Shown one piece after another: positions 1,611 through 35,917 of a stretch of DNA of 64,000 nucleotides. This DNA is from a virus. Taxonomy: Duplodnaviria; Heunggongvirae; Uroviricota; Caudoviricetes. The stretch is taken from positions 17,576 through 81,575 of the IMG/VR virus record IMGVR_UViG_3300037882_000610, one strand, 5' to 3'. How positions within the stretch are numbered: position 1 is the first letter of the stretch; each line of letters starts with the position of its first letter. Both the position numbers and the translations under genes were made by a program. The notes beneath the pieces were generated by a model that worked only from the letters and a program-made list of their open reading frames with translations, did no database searches and was not told the origin of the DNA.

Positions 1611-1611
1611 T

Positions 1612-10664: not shown

Positions 10665-10693
10665 TTGACAAACATACTCCTGCGTGCTATAAT
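10665..10693 (+). promoter_or_regulatory. consensus sigma70-type promoter TTGACA-N17-TATAAT upstream of tail gene block
   Basis: -35 10665-10670, -10 10688-10693. RBS GGAGAT and GTG start at 10714. Confidence 0.6.
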
Positions 10694-10713
10694 CTCGCAG
10701 GTTTGGAGATTGC

Positions 10714-11549: not shown

Positions 11550-11555
11550 GGAAAC

Positions 11556-11912
11556 ATGGCTGCTATTACACAAACAGTGGGTGTCAAGTTGGCATCTGCG
11601 CCGATCAACCTGACTCGCACAACCCTGACTGCATCTGACACTTTGGTGTACGGGGCTGGCGCAGGACAAGTTCTGCAACTCTACAACACAACTGCTTCCC
11701 CAGTTGTTGTCACTCTGACGGGCGATGCCCCGACTCCTCTGAATCCTGCGGGCTACGGTGGTGCTGTGACGACTACAGGTGGCAAGGCAGTGACTGTTCC
11801 TGCAAGCGGTTGGACAAACGTCTCGCTTGATGCAATTTCAGCATTCATCACTGGTGTGAACCCTGTCGCAGTGACAGGCGGAACTGGTGTTATTGCTGCC
11901 CTCTACAACTAA
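11556..11912 (+). CDS. hypothetical tail-associated protein (Thr/Gly/Val-rich)
   Basis: 118-aa ORF with RBS AAGGAAA. Confidence 0.3.
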   Translation: MAAITQTVGVKLASAPINLTRTTLTASDTLVYGAGAGQVLQLYNTTASPVVVTLTGDAPTPLNPAGYGGAVTTTGGKAVTVPASGWTNVSLDAISAFITGVNPVAVTGGTGVIAALYN

Positions 11913-11926
11913 GCAAAGGATACATC

Positions 11927-12370
11927 ATGACTGTGATGACCACAGCCGGCTCACAATTTAAGGTGACGGCATCTGCCCCTGCAACTTACGACGCAACGGG
12001 CTACAACGCCATCTACGGTGGCATGGGCCTCGTCGGTGAAGTAACTGACATGGGTGAAGTGGGACGTGAATACAACGTCGTGAACCACAACCCGATCAGC
12101 AATCGTCTGACGCAGAAGATCAAGGGCAGCTACAACGCAGGCTCCATCACTCTGCAATTCGGACGCGACTTCACGGACGCTGGTCAATCGACCCTGTTCA
12201 CGGCTTCGCGCAGCGACTCTCCGTACAGCTTCGTTATCGTTCTCCAGAACGGCAAGCGCCTGTACTTCACCGGTCTCGTGACAAGCTTCAAGAACTCGGT
12301 CGGCTCTGTTGACCAAATCACTGCGGCTAGCTGCGTGATTGAACTCCAGACGGACGTTGTTGAAGTCTAA
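11927..12370 (+). CDS. major tail (tube) protein
   Basis: 147-aa ORF immediately upstream of G/GT chaperone pair. RBS AAGGA. Confidence 0.5.
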   Translation: MTVMTTAGSQFKVTASAPATYDATGYNAIYGGMGLVGEVTDMGEVGREYNVVNHNPISNRLTQKIKGSYNAGSITLQFGRDFTDAGQSTLFTASRSDSPYSFVIVLQNGKRLYFTGLVTSFKNSVGSVDQITAASCVIELQTDVVEV

Positions 12371-12457
12371 TCTGACTTCTCAATTCTGAGAATAGAGGGA
12401 GAGGCATTGACCTCTCCCCACCCCATCTTACCACAACAGCACAAAGGAATACACAAC

Positions 12458-12865
12458 ATGGCATTCAATCTCAACAAGGCTCCTACCTTCAAGGACACAT
12501 ACGTTCTGCAACTGAAGGACGCTATCACTGACGAACTCCTGTTCGAAGATGACAAGCAAGAAGTGCCTGTGACCATCACTCTCTTCGGCAAGAGCAGCAA
12601 GCAGTATCGCAATGCTGTGACAGCCATGCAGAACCGTGAACTCCGTCGCAAGGCAAAGAAGGACACGGCCACTGCTGAGCAAATTCAGAAGGAATCGACT
12701 GACCTGTTGGTCGCTTGCTCTGCTACCTCTACCCTCGAACTCGACGGAGAAGTTGTGGACAACAAGGCAGCTTTCGAGAAGCTGTACCAGAACACGGAAC
12801 TCTCTTGGATTCGCGACCAAGTTGATGCGGCTCTGGGAGACGACTCCAATTTTTTGGTGAAGTAA
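12458..12865 (+). CDS. tail assembly chaperone (gpG-like)
   Basis: ATG 12458 with RBS AAGGAA. Acidic 135-aa protein ending at slippery site. Confidence 0.55.
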   Translation: MAFNLNKAPTFKDTYVLQLKDAITDELLFEDDKQEVPVTITLFGKSSKQYRNAVTAMQNRELRRKAKKDTATAEQIQKESTDLLVACSATSTLELDGEVVDNKAAFEKLYQNTELSWIRDQVDAALGDDSNFLVK

Positions 12866-13302
12866 CCGACTCGCTAAAGCAGTACGTGCGGCACCTAGGG
12901 TGGCTGCACGCTACAGAGGAAGGTTCCAAGAAATCCCGTATGGCACTGTTCAGGGCAATGAGTGAAGACCACACATACCTGACCATGCCAGATATTGAAA
13001 CTGACCACGCTGCCGGCTACCTGATAGGTTTGCTGCAAGAAGCAGGCCTCATGTCCTCAAACGGCATGGGGCCTGTTCCTATTTCGTGGCAGGAGATTTA
13101 CACATGGATTACGGTGACTCGGAGAAATCTGAGCAACTGGGAAATCCTAATGTTGAAGAGTCTGAGCGAAGAATACGTTAGCGAACTGTTGCAGGCTACA
13201 GCCCGGAACAGACCAGCTCCGTACTCTGTCCAAGAGACAGAACGCAAGGCCGTTGAGCACAAGATCATGAGCATCATGGGAAGTCGAATTCGCCGTGAGT
13301 AG
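12458..13302 (+). CDS. tail assembly chaperone frameshift product (gpGT-like), -1 shift near 12853
   Basis: Continuous -1 frame from slippery site through 13302; lambda-like G/GT architecture directly upstream of tape measure. Confidence 0.45.
12850..12856 (+). other. -1 programmed ribosomal frameshift slippery heptamer T_TTT_TTG
   Basis: X_XXY_YYZ in the G frame, 3 codons before stop. The -1 frame is open from here into ORF 12886..13302. Confidence 0.5.
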
Positions 13303-14008
13303 AAAGCTAACGACAGAAGAGTTCATCACTAAGGCCAGAGAAGTTCATGGCGACAAATGGGATTACAGCCTAGTAGATTATGAATGTGCTACCAAGCCTG
13401 TAAAAATTACTTGCCCTCAGCATGGAGTGTTCCTCCAATCACCCGGACCCCACGTTCTACAGAGACAGGGTTGCCCTGAGTGTGGTAAGTGGAAGTCTGG
13501 TGCTGCGAGAGTCTGTAAGCAAGAGCATTTTCTAAGCAAACTTAGTGATGACTACAAAGCCACTTATGACTTGACTTTGGCTATCTACCAAGGTCTGTAC
13601 TCCCCGGTAACTGTGAGCTGCAAGGAGCATGGCAGATTTCAAGTCAAACCTTGCGATATGTACAAAGGTGCGGGCTGTGTTAAGTGTGCCACATCTGGCT
13701 TCAAAATTGACATACCTGCGTACCTATACGTACTGCAATCAGATGGTAGTGTCAAATTAGGGATAACCAACCGAAAACCGTTGGACAGGGCTCGAAGAAT
13801 CTCTTCATCGTCGGGTGTGGAACATACGGTGGTGCAATCCTTCTACTTTGATCTTGGTAGTGAGGCAAGGAAGTTAGAATCGACGTTGCTTGAAATTCTC
13901 CGAAAGGATTACGACAACCCGCGAGATGTTTATGATGGCTATACGGAGTCCTTTGTCGGCATTGATGCTGCAACTCTGATAGAAAAGATAATCGACCTAC
14001 AGAGGTAA
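13295..14008 (+). CDS. putative nuclease (T5orf172/GIY-YIG-like C-terminus) with N-terminal CxxC zinc-ribbon repeats
   Basis: Four CxxC pairs (CPQHG, CPECG, CKEHG, CVKC), then VKLGITN...RAR. Inserted between chaperone and TMP. Confidence 0.35.
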   Translation: MSRKLTTEEFITKAREVHGDKWDYSLVDYECATKPVKITCPQHGVFLQSPGPHVLQRQGCPECGKWKSGAARVCKQEHFLSKLSDDYKATYDLTLAIYQGLYSPVTVSCKEHGRFQVKPCDMYKGAGCVKCATSGFKIDIPAYLYVLQSDGSVKLGITNRKPLDRARRISSSSGVEHTVVQSFYFDLGSEARKLESTLLEILRKDYDNPRDVYDGYTESFVGIDAATLIEKIIDLQR

Positions 14009-21089: not shown

Positions 21090-23243
21090 ATGGCAACCGT
21101 AGTCAATGCACGGGACGCACTGCTGCAAGCCGCTGGCACTCGTCTGCTGGGCGTGACAGTTGGTTCTAACGTCTCGGTGCCCATCCCCCAGGTTCCTGGG
21201 CTGGGCGCAGCAATCACAGGAGTGACCCTAACAGGAACCTCCTCAGTGTTTCAAATCCCGAAGGCGGGAACTCCTGTCGCACCTACCAGTATCACAGTTA
21301 CAGCAACGCTCCGTAATTTGACTGGTACGCCAACACTGACACTCGTCGCTGGAACGATGTCTGTAACCCCCGCCCTCTCGGGCGGGGCTTTCACGTTTAC
21401 AGAGTCTCAAATGACAGCAGACGGCATTACGCTTCGTCTGTCGTTGTCTGGGTATACAAGTGATTTCACAGTTGTGAAGGTGAGAGAAGGACAGGACGGG
21501 GCAACTGGGGGTACTGGCTCTCCTGGGGCCAATGGGACTCAGCAAGCCATCGCCTACCTGTATGCATGGTCTACGTCAGCGCCTTCGAATCCTAACGGCT
21601 CTAGCACCTATACATGGGCTACAGCAGCTCACACATCATTCTCTGGGCCTACATGGTCTACAGCAGTGGGTAGCAACCCGGGCGGGGCTGGCGTTAAGTT
21701 GTGGGTAGCCGCACAAGGTGTTTCAGCTTCTGCTGTCACGACATCTTCGACAGTCACTTGGCCCAGTAGTGGGACTGGTTACTCTGTCTACGCAGCCGCC
21801 ACAAACGGTAATGACGGCAGCACTGGAGCTACGGGGCCTACTGGGGCAGCGGGTGCGACTGGCTACCAGAGCGCCTACGCTCGTGTCTATCAATGGGCAA
21901 CAAGCACGCCTTCAGGGCCTTCAGGCTCGCCGACATGGACCTGGGCGTCCTCGTCATTTGGTTCTGCCCCTTCAGGCTGGACACTCACTCCTGGCACACC
22001 CCCATCTGCGGGCTACACCTTGTGGTCAGCGTCTGTTCTGGTATCTGATTCTGCCGCGTCCTCGTCCACTGGTTTCAACTGGTCAAGCGCTGCCATTGAT
22101 GCAATCGGTTATGCAGGTACTAACGGCTCTACTGGTTCGACGGGTGCAACAGGTAGCACAGGGCCGCAAGGTGCCTCAGCCCGTACAGCCTACTCGCGCA
22201 TTGCTGGCAACCCTGCACCTACAAGCGGGAACATCACTACAGCAGGCTCTACAGGATTTCCCACAAGTGGGCAATCGAACACCACATGGGGTGTGAACGT
22301 AAGCTGGACAGGCACTGATCCGAATCCTGCTAGCACTGATACGCTGTACCAGACTGATGGCTTTTATGATCCTGCTACAGGTAACACGGTATGGAACACA
22401 CCGTACATTAGCAGCTTGAAGGTTGGCAGTCTGTCTGCCATCACAGTGAATACAGGCGGCTTGAATGTCACCGGAAATGTGAACATCACAAGTGGGGGTT
22501 CTCTCACTGGCCCTGGATTCTCATTCACAGACTCTGCGGCAACATTCAGCGGGGCTCTCAGTGCGGCAACAGGGACTTTTTCAGGGAACTTGTCTGCTGC
22601 GGGTGGCACTTTTGCAGGAAATCTCTCAGCAGCCGGGGGAACATTCTCTGGCAGTATCAGTGGAGCTTCAGGAACCTTTACCGGGAACCTCTCTGGCAGC
22701 ACTATCACTGGAGCTACTTTCACAGGTGGTTTGTTCCAAACAGCCGCCAGTGGCAACCGAGTAGTAATTAACGACTCAAGCGACAACACGTTGAAGATTT
22801 ATTCCACACGTGGGGGCACTCCGGGGGTCTTGGTTGCTCAGGTTGGAAACAACATCTCTGGAGGCGCAGGCATCAATCCTTGCGCGATCTTCGGTGATTC
22901 TACTACAGGTGACTCAGGTGTTTTTGCACAGACGGGTGCTGGCTACGCAGGTTACTTCGTTGCAAGCACTAACGGCTACGCTGTAGCAGCTCTAGCAACT
23001 AATCGTTCCGCTATTGTAGCAAATACCACTGGCACTCAAGGCCAGATTAGAATGGTGGGAACTTCAGCTCCTAGTGGTGGGCACGGGTCAGGTTCGGGAG
23101 TTATTCAACTAGGAGTTGATGCAGATAAGTTGAAGATTCAGGTCTCGGGTGGCATTGGGACTGCCCTGGATACAAACCACATCACTATCAGCGCTTCCAC
23201 CCCTAGCGGGGGGTCTGACGGTGACATTTGGATTACAACTTAA
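21090..23243 (+). CDS. tail fibre protein with collagen-like Gly-X-Y tracts and tandem 11-aa repeats
   Basis: GATGGTGSPGANGT, GSTGATGPTGAAGATG, GSTGSTGATGSTGPQGAS; repeats FSGNLSAAGGTFAGNLSAAGGTFSGSISGASGTFTGNLSG. Confidence 0.6.
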   Translation: MATVVNARDALLQAAGTRLLGVTVGSNVSVPIPQVPGLGAAITGVTLTGTSSVFQIPKAGTPVAPTSITVTATLRNLTGTPTLTLVAGTMSVTPALSGGAFTFTESQMTADGITLRLSLSGYTSDFTVVKVREGQDGATGGTGSPGANGTQQAIAYLYAWSTSAPSNPNGSSTYTWATAAHTSFSGPTWSTAVGSNPGGAGVKLWVAAQGVSASAVTTSSTVTWPSSGTGYSVYAAATNGNDGSTGATGPTGAAGATGYQSAYARVYQWATSTPSGPSGSPTWTWASSSFGSAPSGWTLTPGTPPSAGYTLWSASVLVSDSAASSSTGFNWSSAAIDAIGYAGTNGSTGSTGATGSTGPQGASARTAYSRIAGNPAPTSGNITTAGSTGFPTSGQSNTTWGVNVSWTGTDPNPASTDTLYQTDGFYDPATGNTVWNTPYISSLKVGSLSAITVNTGGLNVTGNVNITSGGSLTGPGFSFTDSAATFSGALSAATGTFSGNLSAAGGTFAGNLSAAGGTFSGSISGASGTFTGNLSGSTITGATFTGGLFQTAASGNRVVINDSSDNTLKIYSTRGGTPGVLVAQVGNNISGGAGINPCAIFGDSTTGDSGVFAQTGAGYAGYFVASTNGYAVAALATNRSAIVANTTGTQGQIRMVGTSAPSGGHGSGSGVIQLGVDADKLKIQVSGGIGTALDTNHITISASTPSGGSDGDIWITT
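22540..22700 (+). repeat. imperfect tandem repeat of about 33 nt (5 copies) inside tail fibre gene
   Basis: Repeating ggnactttntcaggnaacctntctgcngcn units encoding GTFxGNLSAAG. Confidence 0.5.
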
Positions 23244-23782: not shown

Positions 23783-24589
23783 ATGGCAAATCTGCGTGTG
23801 GTCTACTACAATGTAGCCAACACTTCCTCGGGCTTGGTCGCTACAACGACTGCTGGAAGCCTTGCGGTAAGCAATCTTCTGACTGATCGGAAGTCTGAGG
23901 TTTGGCGCTCCACTGCCACTTCAGCCGAATTGACTGTGACTTGGGCAAGTGCTGTAGAAATTTCTATGGTTGCCCTGGCATTTTCAAATCTCTCTCCCAC
24001 GGCTACCGTGAATGTGGCCTTCTACACACTGTACACAGACTCTGCACCAGCTTGGACTTCTCCAACTGTGCTTTGCTCGCCAGTGTCCGTGGACCCAACC
24101 GGCCCTGTAGGTTTCGGTGGGGGGGTTTACGCTGCAACATGGTTTGCAGCTCACACAGCCCAGAAGATTGTCATCACGGTCGCTGACTCATCAAATCCTC
24201 AGGGTTATATCCAGGCAAGCCGGCTGATTGCTGGCACCTACTGGTCTCCAGACCGCAATGTTGAGTCGGATAGCGTCAAGATTGGCATGCAGGAAGATAC
24301 CAAGCACTTCCGTTCGGAGTCTGGCTCTTTGTGGACTGACCGAGGACCGATGTACAAGAAGCTTTCGTTCGACCTATCGTATATGACAGCATCGGATCGA
24401 AACACTATCTGGCGCATTATAGCTGGCAATGGGATGTCAAACGCTGTGTATGTGAGCTTGATGCCGGAATCTACGGACGCTTGGGAAGAGCAGATTCACT
24501 CTATCTACGGTCGTCTGTCATCTTCTAGTGCGCTGACTTACAAATACTCTCATCTGCATGCTACGCAGCTACAGCTTGAAGAGGTTTGA
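23783..24589 (+). CDS. hypothetical protein (tail-associated region)
   Basis: 268-aa ORF; no motif recognised. Confidence 0.4.
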   Translation: MANLRVVYYNVANTSSGLVATTTAGSLAVSNLLTDRKSEVWRSTATSAELTVTWASAVEISMVALAFSNLSPTATVNVAFYTLYTDSAPAWTSPTVLCSPVSVDPTGPVGFGGGVYAATWFAAHTAQKIVITVADSSNPQGYIQASRLIAGTYWSPDRNVESDSVKIGMQEDTKHFRSESGSLWTDRGPMYKKLSFDLSYMTASDRNTIWRIIAGNGMSNAVYVSLMPESTDAWEEQIHSIYGRLSSSSALTYKYSHLHATQLQLEEV

Positions 24590-25068
24590 TGGGCGCAGCT
24601 TGCAGAGTGTGCAATGAAGTTAAAGCTCCTGCTGAATACTACCCTAGATACAAGCAATGCAAGGATTGCATGCTTGCTAAGCAGAGGGCTCGTTACGACG
24701 CTAACCCTGAACTGTTCAAGGCTAGATCAGCAAGCGCTTACAAACGACCTGAGTACAAAGAAAAGCTACGGGTAAGTTGTCGTCGTTGGCGTGAAGTCAA
24801 CAGGGCAAAGGTGACGTTCTCCAACGCTAACCGCAGAGCGGCAGCAAGACTTGCTACTCCCGTCTGGGCTGATAGGAGAGCCATGCTAGAAGTATACAAA
24901 GAGGCTAGAAGACTGAGCGAGCAGATGGGATCGAAGTTCCATGTGGATCACATCGTACCTCTACTCTCAGAAATAGTCTGTGGACTTCATTGCGAAAGCA
25001 ATCTTCAAATTCTTCCGGCAGCAGTGAACCTTTCCAAGAGAAATTTTCATTGGCCGGATATGCCTTAG
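24586..25068 (+). CDS. HNH homing endonuclease, paralog of 9397..9870
   Basis: KFHVDHIVPL...CGLHCESNLQ...N.SKRN. Shared architecture with 9397 copy. Confidence 0.7.
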   Translation: MMGAACRVCNEVKAPAEYYPRYKQCKDCMLAKQRARYDANPELFKARSASAYKRPEYKEKLRVSCRRWREVNRAKVTFSNANRRAAARLATPVWADRRAMLEVYKEARRLSEQMGSKFHVDHIVPLLSEIVCGLHCESNLQILPAAVNLSKRNFHWPDMP

Positions 25069-25094
25069 AGCCCGCTTGTGCGGTTCCCTATTCT

Positions 25095-25128
25095 GGCCTG
25101 CCGAGATGTCTTCGGTGGGCCTTTTTTA
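25095..25128 (+). terminator. rho-independent terminator
   Basis: ggcctg-ccga-gatgtct-tcgg-tgggcc stem followed by TTTTTT. Confidence 0.55.
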
Positions 25129-25139
25129 TGTGAGTCTAA

Positions 25140-25478
25140 ATGCTTGACAATATCGAATCGCACAAGGACTCGATCCTTTTTAATTCTGGATGGCTCGCTT
25201 ACGGAAGCGTTATGGCCGTCTCTATTTGGGGTGGACTCGTGAGTTATTTTGAGAAGCGTGAGAAGTTCTCGTGGAGCGGGCTCACAGCTCAGCTCTTGTC
25301 TTCGTCTTTCGCAGGGATGATGACGGCACTTGTGTGCCAGTATGCCAATCTGCCTACGCCTCTTATGGGCGCCCTAAGCGGAGTTGCTGCCTATATGGGC
25401 ACGCCTGCAATGGTGAAGCTTGCTCGTAAGCTGAAGTGGGTTCGTGAGCTGATGGATTCTAAGGACGGTGACAAGTGA
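25140..25478 (+). CDS. holin (three predicted TM segments)
   Basis: 112 aa, hydrophobic helices, charged C-terminus, directly upstream of lysozyme. Confidence 0.5.
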   Translation: MLDNIESHKDSILFNSGWLAYGSVMAVSIWGGLVSYFEKREKFSWSGLTAQLLSSSFAGMMTALVCQYANLPTPLMGALSGVAAYMGTPAMVKLARKLKWVRELMDSKDGDK

Positions 25479-25912
25479 AAGCCCTTGACATTGCAGTAAA
25501 ACTCATTGCGAAGTTTGAAGGCTGTCGCCTCCAGGCTTACAAGGACATTGTTGGAATCCCTACCATCGGGTATGGTGAGACCAAGGGTGTAAAGATGGGC
25601 GATGTTTGGACGCAGGCCAAGGCTGACGCTGAGCTGCGGAGCCGCACACAAGAGTTCCTAGAGGGAGTCTTGAAGGCTGCACCCAAGCTAGCAGCGTTCA
25701 CGTCGAATCAACAAGCTGCCTGCACTTCATTGGCCTACAACATTGGCCTTGGGGCATTCGCTGGTAGCACAGTTGCCAAACGCATTGCAACAGGCGACCG
25801 GGCAGGAGCAGCAGATGCTTTCCTACTCTGGAACAAAGCGGGTGGACAGGTTGTCCAAGGCCTAGTCACTCGTCGCCAAGAAGAGCGTCGTGTCTTCATG
25901 TCACCAGAATGA
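25475..25912 (+). CDS. endolysin, GH24 (T4-type) lysozyme
   Basis: FEGCRLQAYKDIVGIPTIGYGETKG: catalytic E-x8-D-x5-T triad spacing. Confidence 0.8.
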   Translation: MKALDIAVKLIAKFEGCRLQAYKDIVGIPTIGYGETKGVKMGDVWTQAKADAELRSRTQEFLEGVLKAAPKLAAFTSNQQAACTSLAYNIGLGAFAGSTVAKRIATGDRAGAADAFLLWNKAGGQVVQGLVTRRQEERRVFMSPE

Positions 25913-26508
25913 CTGTAGGTATCTACCAAATTCTTAACACTGCAACTGGAAAGTCCTACGTTGGCAGTTCAGTGTGCATTGCCAGACGTTTCAGCAAGCA
26001 TAAAGCTCTACTCAGGAGTGGCAAGCATGTCAATGCCAAGCTGCAAGCTAGCTGGAACAAGCATGGTGAATCTGTGTTTGTGTTTTCTGCTTTAGAGTAT
26101 TGCGACGAAGGCATGCTCGATGCTAGAGAACAGGCGTGGATGCAGAAGTTGAATGCTGTCAAACAAGGCTACAACATCAATCCTGTTGCAGGTAGCAATC
26201 GAGGCTACAAACACACCGAAGAGTCGAAGCTACTCATCTCCAAAGCTGTATCTGGCAGGGAAGTCTCAGAAGCTACTCGCAACAAGCGTGCTGCTCTTAT
26301 GACCGGGACCAGTGTACCACAAGAAGTCAGAGAGAGGATTTCTCTAAGGCTCAAAGAAATTTCAAAGTCTGCGGACTTCCCTGGTAGGAGAAATCTTGAC
26401 AGGACTGGAACGAAGCAGACTCCAGAGCAGATTGCCAAGCGAGTCGCAGCAACTGCAAGAACGAAATCTATCAAAGCTGAGCAGAAGCTTGGCGCAACTG
26501 AAAGGTAA
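25909..26508 (+). CDS. GIY-YIG homing endonuclease (I-TevI/Seg-like)
   Basis: GIYQILNTATGKSYVGSS...RRFSKHK...NAKLQASWNKHG...E...GYN, C-terminal NUMOD-like repeats. Confidence 0.8.
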   Translation: MTVGIYQILNTATGKSYVGSSVCIARRFSKHKALLRSGKHVNAKLQASWNKHGESVFVFSALEYCDEGMLDAREQAWMQKLNAVKQGYNINPVAGSNRGYKHTEESKLLISKAVSGREVSEATRNKRAALMTGTSVPQEVRERISLRLKEISKSADFPGRRNLDRTGTKQTPEQIAKRVAATARTKSIKAEQKLGATER

Positions 26509-26513
26509 ACAAA

Positions 26514-28763
26514 ATGGCTACTACACAACTAGACATCAAGGGCGTGTTCGACAAGGACACAGGCCAACTGACTGGCTTCGCCTCACCTATGTCCCCTGAG
26601 ATTCCTCTCACATCCTTGGTGTCAGGGGCTCGGATTGTCGTCCTCCAGCCCGGTCGGTCGGCTGCGGCGGCAAACTGGGCGGCGATTGACGAGGCGCTGG
26701 CCGCTGCGCACACAGCTGGCCTTGCTGCCAAGGCCATGCAGTCTGTCGCTGTCTGGGGGCCTGGTGTGTTCTGGGTCGCCGGCCAAATCCGCGTCGGCAG
26801 CTGGACGAATCTGATCGTCGGTGATGGCGTGATCCTGCGCCGGGCGTGGACTGGTACAACCGAGAACGGCACGTTCCTGCGGAACCGGAACCAGCCGGCC
26901 AGCAACGCCGACACGACGACCGGAGACGTGAACGTCAAGGTGACGTGCTACGGCGAGTTCGACTGCAACTGCTACGACCCTACCGCAGTGTTCGGTCCCG
27001 GCTACTACTGGGACGGCATGCAGTGGATCTCGGTGGAGGGCCTGGGGCTCGACCCGATCCGCATCACGAATCCGGTCAAGACCCACGGGCGTTTGGCGAA
27101 GGTGAGCAACGCGCGCATCTACAACTACACGGTCGAGTACGACACGGCCGGCGTCTACACGCCCAACAACGGCAAGGACTTTTTGTTCATCGCCGGAAAC
27201 TGCCGCAACATCCACGTCAAGGGCGTCACCGGCCGCTCCAACGACGACGGCATCACTTGCAATACAGCCGACGTGCCTACGTGGTCGATCCCGTTTGCCG
27301 TCGGCCACATCAGCGACATCCTCGTCGAGGACGTGGACATCAACACGCGCGCACCAGGGCCTGGCGGCGCCACGCTGGCGCTTTATGCAGAGTGCTGGCT
27401 TGATGAAGCCAGCGGCCTCGGTGCCGGCAACGTCGATCCGTTCCTGGGCAACAAACCGGCAATCGCCTTCATCACGCAGTCGGCCGGCGTCGCAACGGTG
27501 ACGACCGACATCCCGCACAAGCTCAACGTCGGGTCTCGCGTCCAGATCAGCGGCGCCAACCCCTCGGGCTACAACACGACCGGATTTGGCTACCAGAACG
27601 GCTGGGCGGATGTCCACGCCGTGCCGTCCGCGACGACGTTTGAATATTTCGTGCAGAACACGACGGGCGCCTATGTGGGCAGCGCCGCGCTGCTGATTTC
27701 GTGGGATCTGAAAAACGTCGTGTACCGCAACGTGCGCGGCGTTGTCGGCACGAAGTTGAACACCTTCCGCAATCGCGGAGGCGTGGCTCGAAACGTCCGC
27801 TACGAGAACGTGCGCAGCAGCTCGTCCGCTAACGCGGCGGAGAGCATGATCGGCCTGAGCGGAACGACGGTGGTCAACCTCACGGTCGGGGATTGCGCGC
27901 CCGACACAAATGAGTGGGTCGGCCTCTTTGGCATGATCAACGGCGCCTATCTGGGCGGCGTGACCCGGTTCCTGGGCGGCGCAACGGCTTCGACTTTCCG
28001 CTCTCACTCGCCGAGCGGCCTGTGCTACATCGACGTGTCGCTGGGCGCCGAGCATGTTGTCGTCGAGGGCTACCATTTCCGGCAGGGCTTGGAGTCGGGC
28101 GACACCACAAAGTCGATCATCCGTATCGGCTCCGCCGTCAGGATGCTGACGGTCCGTGACTCGCGCTACTACTCTCCTCGCTCGGTCGGTGGGCGGTTTA
28201 TCCGGGCTGAGGGCGGTGATGCCTCGGACCAGATCATCAACATCGACGGCTGCGTGATCGGCGGCGACGGCTCGACCGGAGACGGTGGCGTGCTGCTGAT
28301 CCAGCCCACCACGACCGGCTCCGGGAAGCTGATCCTGAACCTGCAGAACACGCACTTTACTGGCGCTTTCAACTCGGCCATTGGTACGGTGGGCGGCCTG
28401 AATCTGCAGGTCAACGTGGACCGCGTGACGCTCAACAGCCTGACGAACGGTCTGCTGTATTTCTCGAATGCGAACTCCAACGTCGAGCTGAACGTCGGCG
28501 CCATCAACTACAACGGCCAGGCGTTGATGGCGGCGTCGCAGCCGTCGTGGACTGGCGGCGGCCTGACGGTGCGCGGCCTCAATGCCCGCATTGACATCGC
28601 CAAAGCGTTGCGCGCGGACGGCGCGGTCCTCTACAACACCAACGCGGCGGCCAACAACGGCACGGATGGTGCTGTGCCTGCTGGCCTGTACTTCTGCACC
28701 GGCACCGCGTCGGGCTCCTGGAAGCTCGCCGGCTCGACGGGCGGCGCGAACAAGCAGTATTGA
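26514..28763 (+). CDS. right-handed beta-helix protein (pectate-lyase-3 / tailspike / polysaccharide depolymerase-like), on high-GC island
   Basis: 749 aa; NCRNIHVKGVTGRSNDDGI, NxxG/VxxV parallel beta-helix rungs. Local GC about 65-68% versus about 50-55% elsewhere; a 719-aa shadow ORF lies on the opposite strand. Confidence 0.55.
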   Translation: MATTQLDIKGVFDKDTGQLTGFASPMSPEIPLTSLVSGARIVVLQPGRSAAAANWAAIDEALAAAHTAGLAAKAMQSVAVWGPGVFWVAGQIRVGSWTNLIVGDGVILRRAWTGTTENGTFLRNRNQPASNADTTTGDVNVKVTCYGEFDCNCYDPTAVFGPGYYWDGMQWISVEGLGLDPIRITNPVKTHGRLAKVSNARIYNYTVEYDTAGVYTPNNGKDFLFIAGNCRNIHVKGVTGRSNDDGITCNTADVPTWSIPFAVGHISDILVEDVDINTRAPGPGGATLALYAECWLDEASGLGAGNVDPFLGNKPAIAFITQSAGVATVTTDIPHKLNVGSRVQISGANPSGYNTTGFGYQNGWADVHAVPSATTFEYFVQNTTGAYVGSAALLISWDLKNVVYRNVRGVVGTKLNTFRNRGGVARNVRYENVRSSSSANAAESMIGLSGTTVVNLTVGDCAPDTNEWVGLFGMINGAYLGGVTRFLGGATASTFRSHSPSGLCYIDVSLGAEHVVVEGYHFRQGLESGDTTKSIIRIGSAVRMLTVRDSRYYSPRSVGGRFIRAEGGDASDQIINIDGCVIGGDGSTGDGGVLLIQPTTTGSGKLILNLQNTHFTGAFNSAIGTVGGLNLQVNVDRVTLNSLTNGLLYFSNANSNVELNVGAINYNGQALMAASQPSWTGGGLTVRGLNARIDIAKALRADGAVLYNTNAAANNGTDGAVPAGLYFCTGTASGSWKLAGSTGGANKQY

Positions 28764-28819
28764 TTCCCGCCCACATGCCACGAATCCCGAACCAGACAGA
28801 AGGTCGCACCCAGCCCGCG

Positions 28820-29314
28820 CTACTTCGTCGGGTGCGGCGGCGAGACGGAAGGTGGCGGAGCGCCTATCAGCTGATCAATCAGGCGATTCCCATCCAACTT
28901 CACATCCAAGGTGCAGCTGTTGATCGCGGCAAGAATGATGGCGAGAAGCGCGGCGTACAGGCCTGTTCGAGAGTTTGCTCGCACCAGCTTGCCGAACTCC
29001 GGATCAATCTTCTCTACCGCTTTCGCGAGGGTTTCTGGGTCCGCGTGTCTGGCACCTGCCTCCCTGATTGCCGCCGCAAAAGCTTGAAGCATCTCTCTCG
29101 TGACGTTAGAAGCAGAGATGACGGTAGCCACTTGGTTCGCCACATTGAAGACGCCTTCGGCGGCGTACGCAAGTCCGCCGCAATGCGGGCATCGGTCCTC
29201 AACGTTCTTGATGGTGAGCCCCACGACGGTGATTCCGCCTCCGACGGAGATGGCCTGGGTAGGGAATATGGCGCCGCACACGGTGCAGGCGGCAGGAAGC
29301 GGTGTATTGCTCAT
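28820..29314 (-). CDS. hypothetical zinc-ribbon protein with C-terminal TM helix
   Basis: CTVCG...CPHCGG plus LYAALLAIILAAI; inside GC-rich island. Confidence 0.3.
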   Translation of the reverse strand: MSNTPLPAACTVCGAIFPTQAISVGGGITVVGLTIKNVEDRCPHCGGLAYAAEGVFNVANQVATVISASNVTREMLQAFAAAIREAGARHADPETLAKAVEKIDPEFGKLVRANSRTGLYAALLAIILAAINSCTLDVKLDGNRLIDQLIGAPPPSVSPPHPTK

Positions 29315-29340
29315 TTATCTCTCCCCTTAAAAATCAGACT

Positions 29341-29460
29341 AGGAGTCCAGCCATGAACACCAAGGATAAGGTTTTCCTGCACGGCATCTTCGCGCTCGGC
29401 GCTTTCGCGGGCGGCATCGGTACCTGCGGCGCCTTTCTTCTGCTTGCTTGGCTTCGCTGA
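29341..29460 (+). CDS. small hydrophobic peptide (39 aa), putative
   Basis: MNTKDKVFLHGIFALGAFAGGIGTCGAFLLLAWLR read from sequence; not in ORF track (<60 aa). Confidence 0.2.
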   Translation, partial: RSPAMNTKDKVFLHGIFALGAFAGGIGTCGAFLLLAWLR

Positions 29461-29492
29461 TTGCCACGCCCTGCCGGTAGCTGCGGGAATTC

Positions 29493-30494
29493 TCAGGAAT
29501 GAGAGTTCTCTACGGCTTTCCAGTCTGCGTCTGTCAGCCCTCTGTCGTTAAGGTAGAGGGCTGTCATCTCAGCATGCTTATGTCCTAAGAGAGTTTGAAC
29601 CACTTCTGGCTTCATTTTCTCTGCGATGTAGGTGCGTGCAGACAGGGATCGGCATTCGTGAAGGCTGGGCCACTCGAACTGCTTGTAGGCCTCAGGTCCG
29701 CAGACAGCTACGATGTGCTCACGGAATCTCGCGCTTAGCGATGACATCTCGATAGGCTTGCCATTCTTCTTGCGAAGAAGCGTAGGCCCTTCGGCTCCGA
29801 TGTCTTTGCAGAGTTCTATGATTTCACCAAGCGTGATGCCAATTGCTTCAAGCTTCAAGTCAAGTGGGATAGCTACTCGGGCTCCGACTAGCTTCCTAGC
29901 TTTCTTCTGTTGTTCGATTCGCAAATGACCGTCCACAACATCCTCGAACTTCATCTTCACTAAGTCACCTCTACGTTGACCTGTAGCTAGAGCAAGTAAG
30001 AGCATGGCTGGCACCCACCGTTGAGGGCCAGACAATGCAAGGTGATACATAGCTTGCCACGTCTCCAAGGTCAGGCGTTTCCTAAGGCCTGGGGCTGCGG
30101 GAGTTTTGACGTGTGCCGCTGGGTTGTTATCTGCGATACCGTTGGCTATAGCCTCAACATATACATCTTTCAACTCAGATAAGACTCGTCCTGCTGAATG
30201 GGGAGAAAAAGTCTTCAGTTGTGTGGCAATCTCGAACGGCTTGATGGCTCGTAGTGGTCTGTCACCCAAGATACGTTGGATATGTCTGATAGAGCATCCA
30301 CGATTCTTGAGAGTCTGTTGGTGATAGCCTCGTTCAGAGACGATCCTCTGGAAGGTTTCTAACCACTCTGACATGGTTGGGCCTTCAGGGACGACCTGAG
30401 TTGGCGCAGGGGTTTGCGCTACTGGAGGGACGGACGAAGCTGCAATAAGTTGCCGAGCTTGCTTCAAAAGCTTTTTGAGTTTCTTCTTTTTCAT
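29493..30494 (-). CDS. int: tyrosine integrase / site-specific recombinase
   Basis: R (LATGQRRGDL), HxxR (HECRSLSAR), catalytic Y (TALYLNDRG); 333 aa. Confidence 0.8.
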   Translation of the reverse strand: MKKKKLKKLLKQARQLIAASSVPPVAQTPAPTQVVPEGPTMSEWLETFQRIVSERGYHQQTLKNRGCSIRHIQRILGDRPLRAIKPFEIATQLKTFSPHSAGRVLSELKDVYVEAIANGIADNNPAAHVKTPAAPGLRKRLTLETWQAMYHLALSGPQRWVPAMLLLALATGQRRGDLVKMKFEDVVDGHLRIEQQKKARKLVGARVAIPLDLKLEAIGITLGEIIELCKDIGAEGPTLLRKKNGKPIEMSSLSARFREHIVAVCGPEAYKQFEWPSLHECRSLSARTYIAEKMKPEVVQTLLGHKHAEMTALYLNDRGLTDADWKAVENSHS

Positions 30495-30585
30495 GCCGCT
30501 ATCCTAACGGCTCAACTTCAACGTAGGGATGGACAACCGCTCAAGTAAGCGGCCCATGTTTGCGTGCCCTCAATTAAGGGATCAA

Positions 30586-31110
30586 ATGGACTTCACATCA
30601 ATCGTAAAGACTGTAGCGCCTTGGATCGGTACAGCACTAGGCGGGCCTCTAGGAGGCATCGCTGTAGAAATGGCTACCAAGGCCTTGGGCGTGTCAGATA
30701 AAACGACTGAGGGGCTTAAAGCAGCCCTTGCCGGGGCCACTGCTGCGGATATGCTTGCCTTGAAGAAGGCAGATCAAGATTTTCAGACTCAAATGACTGA
30801 GCTGGGATTCAAAAATCAAGCGGACCTTGAGGGCATCGCCGCCAATGATCGGGCGTCAGCTCGTGACATGCAGAAGAGCATCCGCTCTTGGGTGCCTTCA
30901 GCCCTCTCAATCCTCATCGTCTCTGGCTTCTTCGTTTTGCTTGGCGGGATGATGACGGGCTGGCTAACAATCTCTGAGAGCCAAGCCTTGCTGTTGATGC
31001 TAGGCTCTCTCACGACAGGATTTGGTGTGGTGATGTCTTATTGGTTTGGAAGTACCAGTGGCAGCTCTGAAAAGACAGCCCTGCTGGCTAAGGCCTCACC
31101 AATCAAGTGA
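30586..31110 (+). CDS. holin-like membrane protein (3-TM, GTA-holin-like)
   Basis: Internal ATG 30586 with RBS AAGGGA. Motif ADLEGIAANDRASARDMQK then two TM helices. Confidence 0.35.
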   Translation: MDFTSIVKTVAPWIGTALGGPLGGIAVEMATKALGVSDKTTEGLKAALAGATAADMLALKKADQDFQTQMTELGFKNQADLEGIAANDRASARDMQKSIRSWVPSALSILIVSGFFVLLGGMMTGWLTISESQALLLMLGSLTTGFGVVMSYWFGSTSGSSEKTALLAKASPIK

Positions 31111-31580
31111 AGCCCGCCGATTGTTGCCCTGAGAAGCCTGTCCTGGCAAAAGGGCTTTGCAAACTATGCTACAGTAGAAGTCGATCAGACTATTTCAAAG
31201 CGTACAAGAAAGAGAACCCCACGACGAATGAGTCTTGGCAGATTCGTAAACATGATCCTGTGCAAAAAGACAGGGACGTTCAGACGTGGAAATGGAAGGC
31301 TCTGAAAAGGAACTACGGTCTGGGGAAAGACGAGTATTTGGCAATATTGGCAGAACAAAATTATGCTTGCAAGATATGCCAGAGACAGTTCTCAGAACTG
31401 ATTACCAGTAAGAAGCGTACACCAGAGAACGTAGACCATTGCCACACTTCAGGGCATGTTCGGGGAATTCTCTGCCATAACTGCAACGCAGGGCTAGGGC
31501 ACTTCAAAGACGATCCTAGTGCTATGCGAGCTGCCGCTCTGTACATAGAAACGACAAAAGCTCCTCAGACATCAGCCTGA
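31107..31580 (+). CDS. endonuclease VII (T4 gp49-like Holliday junction resolvase)
   Basis: CKLCY...ACKICQ...VDHCHTSGHVRGILCHNCNAGLGHF. Confidence 0.75.
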   Translation: MKPADCCPEKPVLAKGLCKLCYSRSRSDYFKAYKKENPTTNESWQIRKHDPVQKDRDVQTWKWKALKRNYGLGKDEYLAILAEQNYACKICQRQFSELITSKKRTPENVDHCHTSGHVRGILCHNCNAGLGHFKDDPSAMRAAALYIETTKAPQTSA

Positions 31581-31624
31581 GGAGCTTCACATTCAAATAT
31601 CAGCGCCTGTGGTAAGGCTCTTTG

Positions 31625-31652
31625 GCTCCTCCCGAAAGGGAGGGGCTTTTTT
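31625..31652 (+). terminator. rho-independent terminator at end of + strand block
   Basis: ggctcctccc-gaaa-gggaggggc then TTTTTT. Confidence 0.6.
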
Positions 31653-31812
31653 CATGGCTGCTTGTTTTCAATCGCCACGACAATCTCAGAAACTACAGGA
31701 TCAATAGCTTCCAGACTGTGTGCACGGCAGGCCCAGATTCCCATCTCGCCTTTGGGATTTTGTCTGAACAAGGCTAGGCCCTCAGACATTCCCTTGCCGC
31801 AAATCATACAGC

Positions 31813-32046
31813 TCATTGGTCAATCGCGTAATGGATGACTCGGACAGTTTCCATGTTGATGAACAACGGCACGTTTGCACCTCCAACGCCTGTAGCGTCG
31901 ATAGTGCCGTCAGTGTCAAACTTGAACTTGGTGAGTCCCTTGAACACAGAGGGCACCGTGTACTTGTCGTTGTACTCAACCATGACCGTCATAGTTCTTG
32001 CCTCAGTCACTTGAGGCGCCTGCTGCAATTTCAGGAGGCACAGCAT
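31813..32046 (-). CDS. hypothetical small protein
   Basis: ORF track; likely starts at internal MTVMVEYNDKY. Confidence 0.3.
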   Translation of the reverse strand: MLCLLKLQQAPQVTEARTMTVMVEYNDKYTVPSVFKGLTKFKFDTDGTIDATGVGGANVPLFINMETVRVIHYAIDQ

Positions 32047-33344: not shown

Positions 33345-33545
33345 TCAGAGACTGTTCAGGTCTGTAACGTGAATGTCGCCATTGTACACGACAGGAAGAC
33401 TTCGGTGTTGCTTCTCAACCACAAAATCCATTGCTGTCAGGTCTTCGTCAATGTTCTTTGCGACGAAGGGCAAATTCTTAGAATTGAGAAAAGCCTTAGC
33501 TCGTGTACAAGCTGGGCAGTTGTTCTTTGTGTAGATTGTAATCAA
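33345..33545 (-). CDS. nrdH: glutaredoxin-like protein NrdH
   Basis: 66 aa, CPAC redox motif near N-terminus; adjacent to RNR genes. Confidence 0.7.
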   Translation of the reverse strand: MITIYTKNNCPACTRAKAFLNSKNLPFVAKNIDEDLTAMDFVVEKQHRSLPVVYNGDIHVTDLNSL

Positions 33546-34108
33546 GTTCCGTGCCTCTCTGTGTAGCCTGCACCTTGCAGGTTGAGTTGTTCAATCATTG
33601 CCTTCCTGTATTTCACAGCCGCCGCAAAGGCTGGTAGAAGCCCCAGCTTGGAAATCGAAAAGCATTTCTGAGATGGCAATCTTTTGGTTGGATTCTTCCA
33701 AAAGGCTGTCCAATAGTAGTTCCCACTTTTTCCGTTGCTTGTACACGACACGCCAGTCACACCGGATGAGTTTGTTACCTGCTTCTTCTTGTTACGGCAA
33801 TTCACCTCGAAAGGTATAACGCGAAGGTTAGTAATGCAGTTGTTGTGGGAGTCGCCGTCTATGTGATCTACAGTCCCATTAGGAAGGCCATGAAATAGCT
33901 TCCAGATTATGATGTGGATAGGATAATCGCACATCTCCAACATCACGTGGGCGTAGCGTTTTTTCTTTTTACTCCCCGCCACACTACCGGCTGGGAGACG
34001 GACGTAGCCAACGCCACGTCCGTTTATCACGTCATGTTTCCATCTCAAAAACGTGGGGCTAGTCTCGTCGTAGTAGAAATGAGCGTGCCAATCAATTTCA
34101 TCTTGCAT
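33542..34108 (-). CDS. HNH-AP2 homing endonuclease (paralog family 1 of 4)
   Basis: YYDETSPTFLRW...VDHIDGDSHNNCITNLR (HNH) plus SSGVTGVS...YWTAFW (AP2-like). Start moved to internal Met because the promoter -10 lies downstream of the ORF-track ATG. Confidence 0.65.
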   Translation of the reverse strand: MQDEIDWHAHFYYDETSPTFLRWKHDVINGRGVGYVRLPAGSVAGSKKKKRYAHVMLEMCDYPIHIIIWKLFHGLPNGTVDHIDGDSHNNCITNLRVIPFEVNCRNKKKQVTNSSGVTGVSCTSNGKSGNYYWTAFWKNPTKRLPSQKCFSISKLGLLPAFAAAVKYRKAMIEQLNLQGAGYTERHGT

Positions 34109-34125
34109 GATGCCTCCAAAGCGAG

Positions 34126-34154
34126 ATTGTAGCATGAAGTTCTCGCTTTGTCAA
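34126..34154 (-). promoter_or_regulatory. consensus sigma70-type promoter (- strand) TTGACA-N17-TACAAT driving HNH-nrdH
   Basis: -35 at 34154..34149, -10 at 34131..34126. Followed by GGAGG and ATG at 34108. Confidence 0.55.
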
Positions 34155-34168: not shown

Positions 34169-35917
34169 TCATTGGCACGACTCACAGATTTCCTCTTTAG
34201 ACGCTGTAACTCCTGCCTTGCTGTAGTAGTAGTAGATGCCGAGAATCAGAGGATTCAGAAAAGCCAAGGAAGTGATACGAGCGATTTCTGCTTCTGGAAC
34301 GTCACCAGCAAAGAATAGGTTCATACTTTGCCCTTGATCCAGATACCGTTGACGTGCTGCTGCAAGCTTCAGGATCGACTCTTGAGGAATCTCAAAAGCT
34401 GTTCGGAAGACACGCTTCTCCTCGTCTGTCAGCCAGTCTACACCTTGCACAGAGCCCTGAGCATCAGTGATTTCCTGCATGTGCTTCTTGTCGTACACAC
34501 CCCTCTCCTTCATCAACTCTAGAAAGATCGGATTAGCACGGTCAACTTCGCCAGCCGGGGTCAATTGCAGGAACGTCATAGCCACGTCAGGGTTGGCACC
34601 TTCAGAGATGCCAGCCATCAGCATAGCAGTGCTCTTGGTAGGAGCCTGAGCTGTCCTGTGCGTGTTGCGTAGGCCTGAGCCCTTGCACCACTCAGGTTCT
34701 CCAAAGACGCTTGCTAGCCACTTCGAAGCCTCAAGAGTGTCGTCATGCAGCGCCTTGTAGATTTCGTTGTTGAAGGCGTAAGCCTCGTAGCTGTCCCAGG
34801 CCCAGCGCTTCATCTGCAAGTAGGTGTGGAATCCTACCAGACCCAGGCCTAGAGGACGACCAAGCTCAGCAAACTTGACAGCCTTCTCCATACCAGGGAC
34901 ACCCTTAGCCTTACTGATGAAGTCTGCGTTGACGCAATCCAAGAACACATGGGCAATGAAGATTGCCCGGGTTCCCTTGATCTTGTCCCAACGTGAGGCA
35001 TTGATGCTCGACAGGACACAAGTGTACGTCAAGTCGTAGCTGCTGTGCAAGTGAATCTCATTGCAGAGCTGTGGAGCCACGACCATAAGGCCACGGTCTT
35101 TGTAGACCTGAGGACGACGCTCATTGATCTTGTCAATGAAAGCGAAGTAGCCCTTGCCAGTCACCATCTTCGTGAACAGCGCCTGCTTGTAGCGGGCCAC
35201 AGCATCTTCGTCTCCAGCCTTCAGGCGTTCGATGAACTCGTTGCTGATATTCCAGCCAACGTTCAAGCCGTCTGGACTGTCCTTCAGGTAGTTGCACAGC
35301 TCAAAGAAGTCCCCATGCTCGATAGGCAGATAGCCTGCCCAAGCACCACGACGGTTCGAGCCTTGGCTGACGACAGTCGTGTCAAGCACGAAGGTCTTAA
35401 TCCATTCAACTACGCCACCACTCACCACGCCCTTAGCACTTACAACACCACGTGCACTGATGTCCCCGAGATAAGAAGCAGTACCAAAGCCATTCTTGGT
35501 TAGCACAGCTACTTCCAGCTTGGCAGAGTAGATGCCGTAGACGCTGTTGTCGATTCGATTGCCAGAGCAAGAAACCGAAAATCCCCTGTCCGTCCCCGTG
35601 TTGGAGATGACAGGGGTAGAGCCCGACAGATTGCCGTTCCACATCTGGTCAAAGAATGCCTGAGCCCAGGTGTAGTCCTTGCCGAACTCAGCCTCCCACC
35701 AATCGGGGTAGTGGCCCTCAACGTACTGAGCCAACGTGTTTGCGATGCGGGAGTATTGCTCCTTAGGAGTCTGAGCATTGTAAAGGTACTTGCCCTTGAA
35801 CAATTGCCAAGCCCCTGTGCTCCACCAGTCTTGCATGTTGCCCGAGGCTTGGAGAGCCTTACGCTCCCGGCTCAGGCTGTCATAGATATTGTCACTCATT
35901 GTGCTTCGTAATTCCAA
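34169..35917 (-). CDS. nrdA: ribonucleotide reductase class I alpha subunit (no ATP cone)
   Basis: SNRRGAWAGYLPIEHGD, LCNEIHL, C-terminal CESCQ tail; 582 aa. Confidence 0.8.
   Translation of the reverse strand: MELRSTMSDNIYDSLSRERKALQASGNMQDWWSTGAWQLFKGKYLYNAQTPKEQYSRIANTLAQYVEGHYPDWWEAEFGKDYTWAQAFFDQMWNGNLSGSTPVISNTGTDRGFSVSCSGNRIDNSVYGIYSAKLEVAVLTKNGFGTASYLGDISARGVVSAKGVVSGGVVEWIKTFVLDTTVVSQGSNRRGAWAGYLPIEHGDFFELCNYLKDSPDGLNVGWNISNEFIERLKAGDEDAVARYKQALFTKMVTGKGYFAFIDKINERRPQVYKDRGLMVVAPQLCNEIHLHSSYDLTYTCVLSSINASRWDKIKGTRAIFIAHVFLDCVNADFISKAKGVPGMEKAVKFAELGRPLGLGLVGFHTYLQMKRWAWDSYEAYAFNNEIYKALHDDTLEASKWLASVFGEPEWCKGSGLRNTHRTAQAPTKSTAMLMAGISEGANPDVAMTFLQLTPAGEVDRANPIFLELMKERGVYDKKHMQEITDAQGSVQGVDWLTDEEKRVFRTAFEIPQESILKLAAARQRYLDQGQSMNLFFAGDVPEAEIARITSLAFLNPLILGIYYYYSKAGVTASKEEICESCQ

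Follow-up and report, generated by a model that had tools for sequence, protein, structure and literature searches.

A GH28-like beta-helix hydrolase gene, probably imported recently from high-GC phages, behind the lysis cassette of a siphovirus-type phage

Beta-helix depolymerases of phages occur in virion-bound and in soluble form, are exchanged as modules between phages, and in some cases dock via short N-terminal peptides (PMC5380687). The DNA analysed here, referred to throughout as the window, is a stretch of 64,000 nucleotides (nt) from a virus of the Caudoviricetes (IMG/VR record IMGVR_UViG_3300037882_000610, positions 17,576 to 81,575). At 26514-29470 of its own numbering it holds an island of high guanine-plus-cytosine (GC) content dominated by a single large gene, whose product is a predicted right-handed beta-helix protein of 749 amino acids (aa) resembling glycoside hydrolase family 28 (GH28). 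As in the textbook pattern of depolymerases (PMC5380687), the catalytic body of this protein is exchanged between unrelated phages and joined to variable N-termini, and its relatives are encoded in late or structural neighbourhoods. The island is probably the outcome of a recent horizontal import of the body of a GH28-like hydrolase gene into a siphovirus-type phage of ~53% GC, in which the product would hydrolyse surface polysaccharide. The features that carry this reading are the following, where ORF stands for open reading frame, GC3 for the GC content of third codon positions and pLDDT for the predicted local distance difference test.

26514-28763, plus strand: gene for the 749-aa GH28-like right-handed beta-helix glycan hydrolase (predicted; depolymerase-like)
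26514-26624, plus strand: N-terminal peptide, the first ~37 codons, disordered and native-like in composition (from GC, pLDDT below 50 and colinearity with protein P0004)
26625-28772, plus strand: block with 82% nt identity to positions 10313-12460 of phage contig L001 (nucleotide comparison)
26618-29303, no strand: GC-rich block of 2.7 kb, ~63% GC, delimited by likelihood change-points
26622-28781, minus strand: 719-aa shadow ORF, not a gene but a consequence of the high GC3 of the strand that codes

Composition and origin of the island

An earlier note made from the letters alone had claimed a high-GC island with shadow ORFs on the opposite strand, acquired recently and horizontally from a high-GC donor, and computation bears out each of these points. 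GC is 62.7% in the island and 52.7% in all other parts of the window; no sliding window of the same length is richer (the island lies ~4 standard deviations (sd) above their mean; mean 0.532, sd 0.023), and no 1-kb bin outside it rises above 0.598, so that the composition is far from uniform. Within the 749-aa gene (63.7% GC overall) the values for the first, second and third codon positions are 0.58/0.50/0.83, the GC3 of 0.83 comparing with 0.46-0.60 in 12 neighbour genes; since it is mainly third positions that are enriched, the rise is not accounted for by amino-acid content. Codon usage is likewise that of an outlier, as the distance in relative synonymous codon usage (RSCU) from this gene to resident genes is 0.70, and the residents lie 0.25-0.57 from one another. 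Besides the 719-aa ORF there are several shorter shadow ORFs, and the former is taken as a shadow because the plus frame is conserved and under purifying selection.

The edges of the island are less simple than its composition. Maximum-likelihood change-points of GC fall at 26618 on the left and 29303 on the right, and the left step thus lies ~35 codons inside the 749-aa gene, downstream of its ATG (26514). The opening ~105 nt of the gene have 49-52% GC and a GC3 of 0.60, the following 105 nt have 70% GC, and the jump falls where homology to L001 begins. On the right, the edge coincides with the start of a minus-strand 164-aa ORF, and elevated GC runs for ~530 nt (28772-29303) beyond the L001 match, a segment that holds this ORF. 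The island is composite, since the codon usage of the 164-aa orphan ORF is unlike both that of the phage and that of the donor type. A search for flanking direct or inverted repeats, as expected of a transposon-like or att-like insertion, returned just short chance-level matches around the island.

The closest homologues point to where the gene body may have come from. Three of them sit in three mutually unrelated podovirus-like phage contigs of 66.7-67.0% GC, where the gene has 61-65% GC and a GC3 of 0.80-0.91 and is thus native in composition. Their gene orders are as follows.

L001, P22-like: terminase, P22 portal, coat, gp4-like gene, the gene, gp10-like head-closure gene
L002: contig with SU10-type adaptors
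L003, BPP-1-like: T7-type portal, the gene, Bbp19-like gene, protease, major head protein

Similarity between the window and L001 is confined to the 82% block listed above, which ends 9 nt past the stop codon. The RSCU distance to L001 genes is 0.36 for the 749-aa gene as opposed to 0.67-1.07 for resident genes. Where the two copies encode the same amino acid (621 codons), GC3 stands at 0.847 for the window and 0.844 for L001, and third-position swaps between AT and GC are symmetrical, at 70 against 72. As no drift towards the ~50% GC3 of the recipient is seen, the transfer appears recent when measured by amelioration. Synonymous divergence (dS) from L001, at 0.76, is too large for L001 to have been the donor, which belongs to the same pool of high-GC phages but has not been sampled. 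Cultured relatives of L001 and L003 infect Ralstonia, Pseudomonas, Sphingopyxis, Bordetella, Limnohabitans and Caulobacter. Recent horizontal transfer from a high-GC phage pool is thereby well supported by the sequence comparisons.

Family, predicted fold and candidate active site of the 749-aa protein

Compared with its closest homologue, the 749-aa gene shows a nonsynonymous divergence (dN) of 0.10, a dS of 0.76 and a dN/dS of 0.135, and purifying selection, the existence of homologues and a coding-type GC pattern together indicate a working gene. The family to which it belongs is small. Among 5.8 billion clustered proteins there are just three close relatives besides the protein itself (P0002, P0003 and P0004, at 85%, 55% and 52% aa identity), so that, counting the protein itself, four members are closer than 50% identity, and a profile re-search of the same set added zero new members. 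When 1.84 billion representatives were searched exhaustively with a profile, 89 distant relatives emerged, of which nine had E values below 1e-30, and a family-alignment search found no further loci of the gene family in IMG/VR, metagenome contigs or GTDB genomes. Single-sequence searches of Pfam, NCBIfam, PADLOC, PDB and 50,697 deposited phage genomes gave no match, and the sole PHROG match is to phrog_9998, a family of unknown function, over residues 313-375. Neither a transmembrane or hydrophobic segment nor a signal-like N-terminus was found in the protein.

A structural model was predicted with AlphaFold (AF2) from a 16-sequence alignment (pLDDT 76, predicted template modelling score 0.80), an earlier model from four sequences having been dropped as too poor (pLDDT 57). 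In the model, residues 1-37 are disordered (pLDDT below 50) and a capping helix at 48-72 leads into a long run of short strands, which is interrupted at ~313-395 by an inserted barrel; the C-terminal segment is of lower confidence. The predicted structure has the beta-helix fold that GH28 and the tailspike class alike possess. The segments to which a function might be attached are these.

27177-27248, plus strand: candidate catalytic Asp codons, D222 at 27177-27179 and D244/D245 at 27243-27248 (GH28 motif alignment)
27450-27698, plus strand: inserted beta-barrel, ~aa 313-395, which breaks the beta-helix (phrog_9998 match at 313-375; model strands at 317-396)
28611-28760, plus strand: C-terminal tag of ~50 aa (shared extreme C-terminus of otherwise different proteins)

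The profile built from the 16 sequences matches GH28 chains in PDB with E values from 2e-7 to 1.6e-5, and the alignments to 8ikx and 7b7a place the family motif 'GrDgIh' on the GH28 motif 'NTDGIH' and 'nDDfi' on 'GDDCIS'. The counterparts in the window protein are D222 for the 'NTD' motif and D244/D245 for the 'G/QDD' motif; D244 and D245 are invariant in 16 of 16 sequences and D222 is present in most. At the gathering threshold of Pfam GH28 (PF00295) the distant member P0028 passes, with 26.7 bits where 22.9 are required, P0004 stays below threshold with an E value of 2.4e-5, and the window protein has no match even at E<=10. The protein is thus probably GH28-like in fold and chemistry, to judge from alignment and model, and the right-handed beta-helix and polysaccharide-enzyme character that had been proposed for it earlier gains support from the predicted fold and the conserved aspartates. 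The inserted barrel, searched as a segment alone, draws separate matches among protein representatives.

The C-terminal tag of the window protein reads R.DG..YNTNAAANNGTDG...G.YFCTGTASGSWKLAG.TGGANKQY. As an observation in its own right, the tag (aa ~700-749, R.DG...N.NA.ANNGTDG...G.F.C.GT..GSWK..GT.GGA..QY) recurs near-unchanged at the ends of many proteins, among them P0017, P0019-P0021, P0023, P0024, P0044 and P0048, which are 206 to 883 aa long and differ from one another in the rest of their sequence. These proteins carry no Pfam or PHROG annotation, and the tag does not occur in the deposited phage genomes. The tag may aid folding or trimerisation, or may serve as a module for binding. 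Duplicates of the N-terminal peptide, the barrel or the tag elsewhere in the window were considered and rejected, as none is similar to other window proteins.

Neighbourhood, deployment and rival readings

The genes around the 749-aa gene, on which its expression and deployment would depend, are listed in order.

25095-25121, between an HNH gene and the holin: strong terminator-like hairpin, 11-bp stem with 7 GC pairs, T-run
25140-25478, plus strand: holin (Pfam, PHROG and NCBIfam)
25475-25912, plus strand: endolysin, lysozyme-type (Pfam, PHROG and NCBIfam)
25909-26508, plus strand: GIY-YIG/NUMOD3 free-standing homing endonuclease, 47.5% GC, GC3 0.47 (Pfam and PHROG matches)
28820-29314, minus strand: 164-aa orphan ORF, convergent with the 749-aa gene, 59.8% GC
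29354-29460, plus strand: 35-aa hydrophobic ORF, ATG start, ribosome-binding site (RBS) taggag
29493-30494, minus strand: tyrosine integrase, right neighbour, 50.7% GC (Pfam, PHROG and NCBIfam)

The annotated flanks agree with the earlier placement of the gene away from the tail genes, between lysis cassette and integrase: the last tail-region gene ends at 24589, and an HNH gene, the hairpin, holin, endolysin and GIY-YIG gene intervene. The hairpin suggests that the lysis cassette and the imported gene are set apart from the tail operon. The GIY-YIG gene overlaps the endolysin stop and itself ends 5 nt before the ATG of the 749-aa gene, which has the late, lysis-type orientation. A scan for sigma-70 consensus sites found nothing promoter-like between 26024 and 31149, and a consensus scan found no terminator-like site on the plus strand after 28763. 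Because of the 5-nt gap and the lack of a promoter-like site of its own, the 749-aa gene reads as the last gene of the holin-endolysin transcription unit, late-operon cargo rather than a classical moron, and it would be co-expressed late with the lysis genes. Of the properties of a moron, the term used in the earlier note, the atypical composition was found, but a promoter and terminator of its own were not; in the strict sense that term is not upheld.

Two further descriptions from that note survive in part. The two "tiny membrane/zinc-ribbon ORFs" exist and have the features ascribed to them, but one of them is 164 aa long and lies on the minus strand. It has Cys10/13/42/45 (CxxC...CxxC, a zinc-ribbon-like N-terminus), a hydrophobic segment at ~117-140 and a strong RBS (aaggggagag), and it shares its strand with the integrase; it has no homologue except itself among 5.8e9 proteins and no PADLOC match. 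A plus-strand ORF of 198 aa at 28760-29356 was rejected in its favour because of the GC1/2/3 pattern, the RBS, an Arg-rich shadow-like translation and the gene call of the source itself. For the smaller ORF, the ATG-started version of 35 aa is most likely, rather than a GTG version of 52 aa (start at 29302 in the mechanical ORF list). Both ORFs are separate orphan cargo at the right of the imported gene. The GIY-YIG gene and the integrase do flank the island, but the former is no compositional boundary, having 47.5% GC, and a native-like stretch of ~105 nt parts it from the GC step. A cassette borne by the homing endonuclease would be expected to share its composition, and this test failed (GC3 of 0.47 vs 0.83 in the cargo); nor was an endonuclease gene recognised beside the homologues in L001-L003. 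The GIY-YIG gene was not imported together with the cargo, and a role as recombination stimulus is conceivable for it but unsupported.

These data allow a scheme for how the enzyme may act. The imported body (~26625-28772) would derive from a gene circulating among phages of ~67% GC, and the protein would be made late along with the lysis proteins. Because it has no signal peptide, it would have to await lysis to exit the cell, whether attached to virions or as free enzyme, and it could then hydrolyse a putative acidic polysaccharide of the host surface, be it capsule, exopolysaccharide (EPS) or O-antigen, which might let progeny reach or leave the cell surface. Carriage on the virion is held to be slightly more likely than release of free enzyme at lysis, and the short N-terminal peptide is, by pure conjecture, what might dock it. 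Virion carriage finds support in relatives that lie among structural genes, in P0009, which has a tail-fibre-type N-terminus, and in P0002, which has an extra N-terminal domain of 75 aa.

Several observations weigh against this scheme and the reading behind it. An N-terminal particle-binding domain was not found in the 749-aa protein, in which the cap helix follows the disordered residues from position 48, and the missing anchor together with a location outside the tail module weakens the virion-bound option. The window protein has no sequence match in Pfam, NCBIfam or PDB, its likeness to GH28 coming from the family profile and the predicted structure. No GH28 'RIK' motif was recognised in it, and H265, which lies 20 residues past D245, is present only in the four close relatives; the D245-H265 spacing is about one helix turn, as it is for the GH28 'GHG' motif. 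Since the Pfam model failed, RIK was not found and the GHG histidine is confined to those four, the protein is not a certified GH28 member. The promoter scan covered the sigma-70 consensus only. Finally, no close relative of the recipient was found in four collections, which left no genome in which to look for the island or its lack; nor did these searches turn up an orthologous phage with the gene in this place and at native codon usage, the finding that would have told against import.

The strongest competitor to virion carriage is a free, lysis-associated depolymerase, which is less probable than the preferred reading yet has a substantial share of the likelihood. It would be an anchor-less accessory that clears capsule or EPS round the burst cell, encoded by a mobile, self-sufficient cassette. 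The gene stands directly behind holin and endolysin, with the terminator-like hairpin parting the unit from the tail genes, residues 1-37 are disordered with no anchor domain, and a specific anchor is unlikely since the peptide is common to a BPP-1-like podovirus (P0004) and a siphovirus. Soluble phage depolymerases are, moreover, documented (PMC5380687). The genomic slots of the family are divided between the two options. Some distant members follow lysis genes, one after holin-lysozyme-Rz (L007 2303-4591) and one after an amidase (L008 8001-10343); others lie directly after a portal (L003 2583-4844, L009 8001-10304 and L010 4385-6688), and the L003 copy takes the place of the 109-aa bbp20 of BPP-1 (L004 7624-7953), between portal and head genes, which is counted in favour of free enzyme. 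The gene thus behaves as a wandering late-operon cassette in non-homologous slots. However, most characterised beta-helix depolymerases are virion-bound, several family members do lie among structural genes, and the N-termini of P0009 and P0002 speak against release.

A second possibility, somewhat more doubtful, concerns the left junction and refines the preferred reading of an imported body rather than excluding it. By allelic replacement, the body of a resident family member would have been overwritten from codon ~37 by a high-GC allele while the native docking peptide was kept, and the adjacent GIY-YIG endonuclease, 5 nt upstream, may have stimulated the break. The GC change-point (26618) and the start of L001 homology (26625) coincide inside the ORF, the GC contrast there is sharp (52% and a GC3 of 0.60 in the first 105 nt, 70% in the next), and the 52%-GC phage L007 has, behind its lysis cassette, a family member of native GC. 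The N-terminus, too, is still family-like, as its first 65 residues are colinear with that of P0004 (E 1e-6) and share a DxDTGxLxGxxxP motif, from which it follows that the peptide belongs to the family under either reading of the junction. On the other hand, gene 5' ends are often lower in GC, and the L002 copy also has a GC3 of 0.57 over its first 35 codons; L001 has a different N-terminus, so that the start of homology may merely mark a domain boundary; just 35 codons are at issue; and no relative that lacks the island or carries the old allele was found. The alternative is that the whole gene may have been imported, its 5' end simply being less GC-rich, as in L002. Bbp20 of BPP-1 was considered as the family N-terminus and rejected.

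It is unlikely, though worth stating, that the gene represents an undescribed anchor-less GH28-like cassette with a portable C-terminal tag (...NNGTDG...GSWK..G..GGA..QY) that hops among late operons and serves as a free 'third-layer' lysis accessory. In this variant its hosts would be P22-like, BPP-1-like and SU10-like phages and the present siphovirus, it would land next to portals or lysis genes, and by analogy it would dissolve capsule or EPS at burst and have no receptor-binding role as a tailspike. LysB deals with the mycobacterial outer layer at lysis.

Lysogenic conversion, in which the island would be expressed from the prophage and would modify the lysogen surface or exclude other phages, is improbable. 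The island does adjoin a tyrosine integrase, in a classical variable region, and the 164-aa zinc-ribbon/membrane ORF has the same strand as the integrase and a strong RBS of its own. However, the 749-aa gene follows late genes at a distance of 5 nt and lacks a promoter-like site, its product has neither signal peptide nor transmembrane segment and thus no way to the outside of a lysogen that is alive, neither it nor the 164-aa ORF has a PADLOC match, and the phage has lytic-type features (its own polymerase, ribonucleotide reductase, 14 transfer RNAs (tRNAs) and many homing endonucleases). Expression of the large gene in a lysogen is accordingly unlikely; such expression may hold for the 164-aa ORF, which is a candidate for true lysogeny-side cargo. 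That the island is an artefact of chimeric metagenome assembly or of amino-acid composition is hardly credible, for although the source of the window is a contig assembled from a metagenome (jgi), no second copy of it was found and the window's own protein is missing from the contig index, an internal insert needs two chimeric joins with the ORF in frame across the left one, both flanks are of the same phage, and the rise is in third positions.

The recipient itself is an uncultured phage of siphovirus type, with large terminase, portal, protease, major head and major tail proteins and a 1710-aa tape measure, and has a minus-strand replication arm with ribonucleotide reductase and family-A DNA polymerase. 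Its large terminase is at most ~43% identical to those of cultured phages, and some of the best matches are low-GC phages of the high-GC Pseudomonas aeruginosa; it is conceivable that donors and recipient have their high-GC hosts in common, the recipient nonetheless retaining a lower GC. Relatives were not found by INPHARED megablast (24000-32000) or by tblastn with a 268-aa tail-region protein, nor in IMG/VR (268-aa protein and integrase), JGI metagenome contigs (268-aa protein) or GTDB (integrase). Upstream of the terminase, at 482-3313, are 14 tRNA genes, and the array includes U34 species reading A-ending codons (Lys-UUU, Glu-UUC, Val-UAC, Pro-UGG); such a set would suit a phage whose host is richer in GC than the phage itself. 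The tyrosine integrase, which may serve lysogeny or some different task in recombination, occurs alongside lytic-type features (own DNA polymerase and ribonucleotide reductase; 34169-35917 and 48966-51389), and next to it no attP candidate or tRNA fragment was seen, the 14 tRNAs being far from the island. A 717-aa tail-region protein (21090-23243) has collagen-like Gly-X-Y runs, a weak NCBIfam Scl1/SclA match and an unusually high GC2 of 0.66, and is probably the resident fibre. At least five ORFs resemble homing endonucleases (HNH, endonuclease VII-like, GIY-YIG), one lying between tail genes and tape measure and two bracketing the lysis cassette.

13295-14008: homing-endonuclease-like ORF
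24586-25068: homing-endonuclease-like ORF
25909-26508: homing-endonuclease-like ORF
31107-31580: homing-endonuclease-like ORF
33542-34135: homing-endonuclease-like ORF

Comparison with described systems

The locus offers a clean and quantifiable case of what appears to be a very recent module transfer between phages that are ~15 GC points apart and share no other gene. It also suggests that 67%-GC phages may have a host in common with a lower-GC phage that encodes replication genes and tRNAs itself, and may be the source from which the latter takes surface-sugar enzymes. The family has no Pfam or PHROG function and yet a predicted GH28-like fold with identifiable candidate catalytic residues, which makes it a candidate for a new depolymerase specificity in biofilm or capsule work, and its C-terminal tag and recurrent placement beside lysis genes or portals bear on how such enzymes are deployed.

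With GH28 (polygalacturonases, rhamno- and xylogalacturonases; PDB 5olp, 8ikx, 3jur, 1bhe, 4c2l and 1rmg) the window protein shares the beta-helix and the N-terminal capping helix in its predicted structure. It differs in that identity is 12-16%, in that it fails the Pfam GH28 model, in being phage-encoded, and in being about twice as long, its helix running ~300 residues further with the 80-aa barrel and the conserved 50-aa end tag in addition. Phage beta-helix depolymerases used for comparison were APK14 gp49 of an Acinetobacter phage (8oq1), the Klebsiella K1 lyase (7w1c), KP34gp57 (8bke), phi297 gp61 (4ru5), HK620 (2vji) and phi29 gp12 (3gq7). An insertion domain within the helix, as in the window protein, is described for LKA1 gp49 (PMC5701251). 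Unlike tailspikes, the protein has no N-terminal anchor domain but only the 37-aa disordered peptide, its gene follows the lysis cassette and two homing-endonuclease genes rather than keeping company with tail genes, it has no sequence counterpart among the deposited phage genomes, and in place of a Peptidase_S74-type C-terminal chaperone it ends in a different conserved tag. Peptide-docked depolymerases resemble it in the short N-terminal peptide directly before the enzymatic body (PMC5380687), with the difference that no adaptor protein was identified here and that the recipient is siphovirus-type.

The lambda b-region and the P22 gene 9-gtr-int region are variable regions beside an integrase, and the island resembles morons and such regions as an insert of foreign composition that closes the late region and borders on a tyrosine integrase; it differs in that its large gene lacks an export signal as well as a promoter or terminator of its own and is read with the late lysis genes. 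What is already known is the modular horizontal exchange of depolymerase bodies, and in that respect the locus is a clear but ordinary instance of phage gene exchange. What is new is an unannotated family absent from cultured phages, a portable C-terminal tag, an unusually sharp contrast in composition that dates the event, and a slot behind the lysis cassette.

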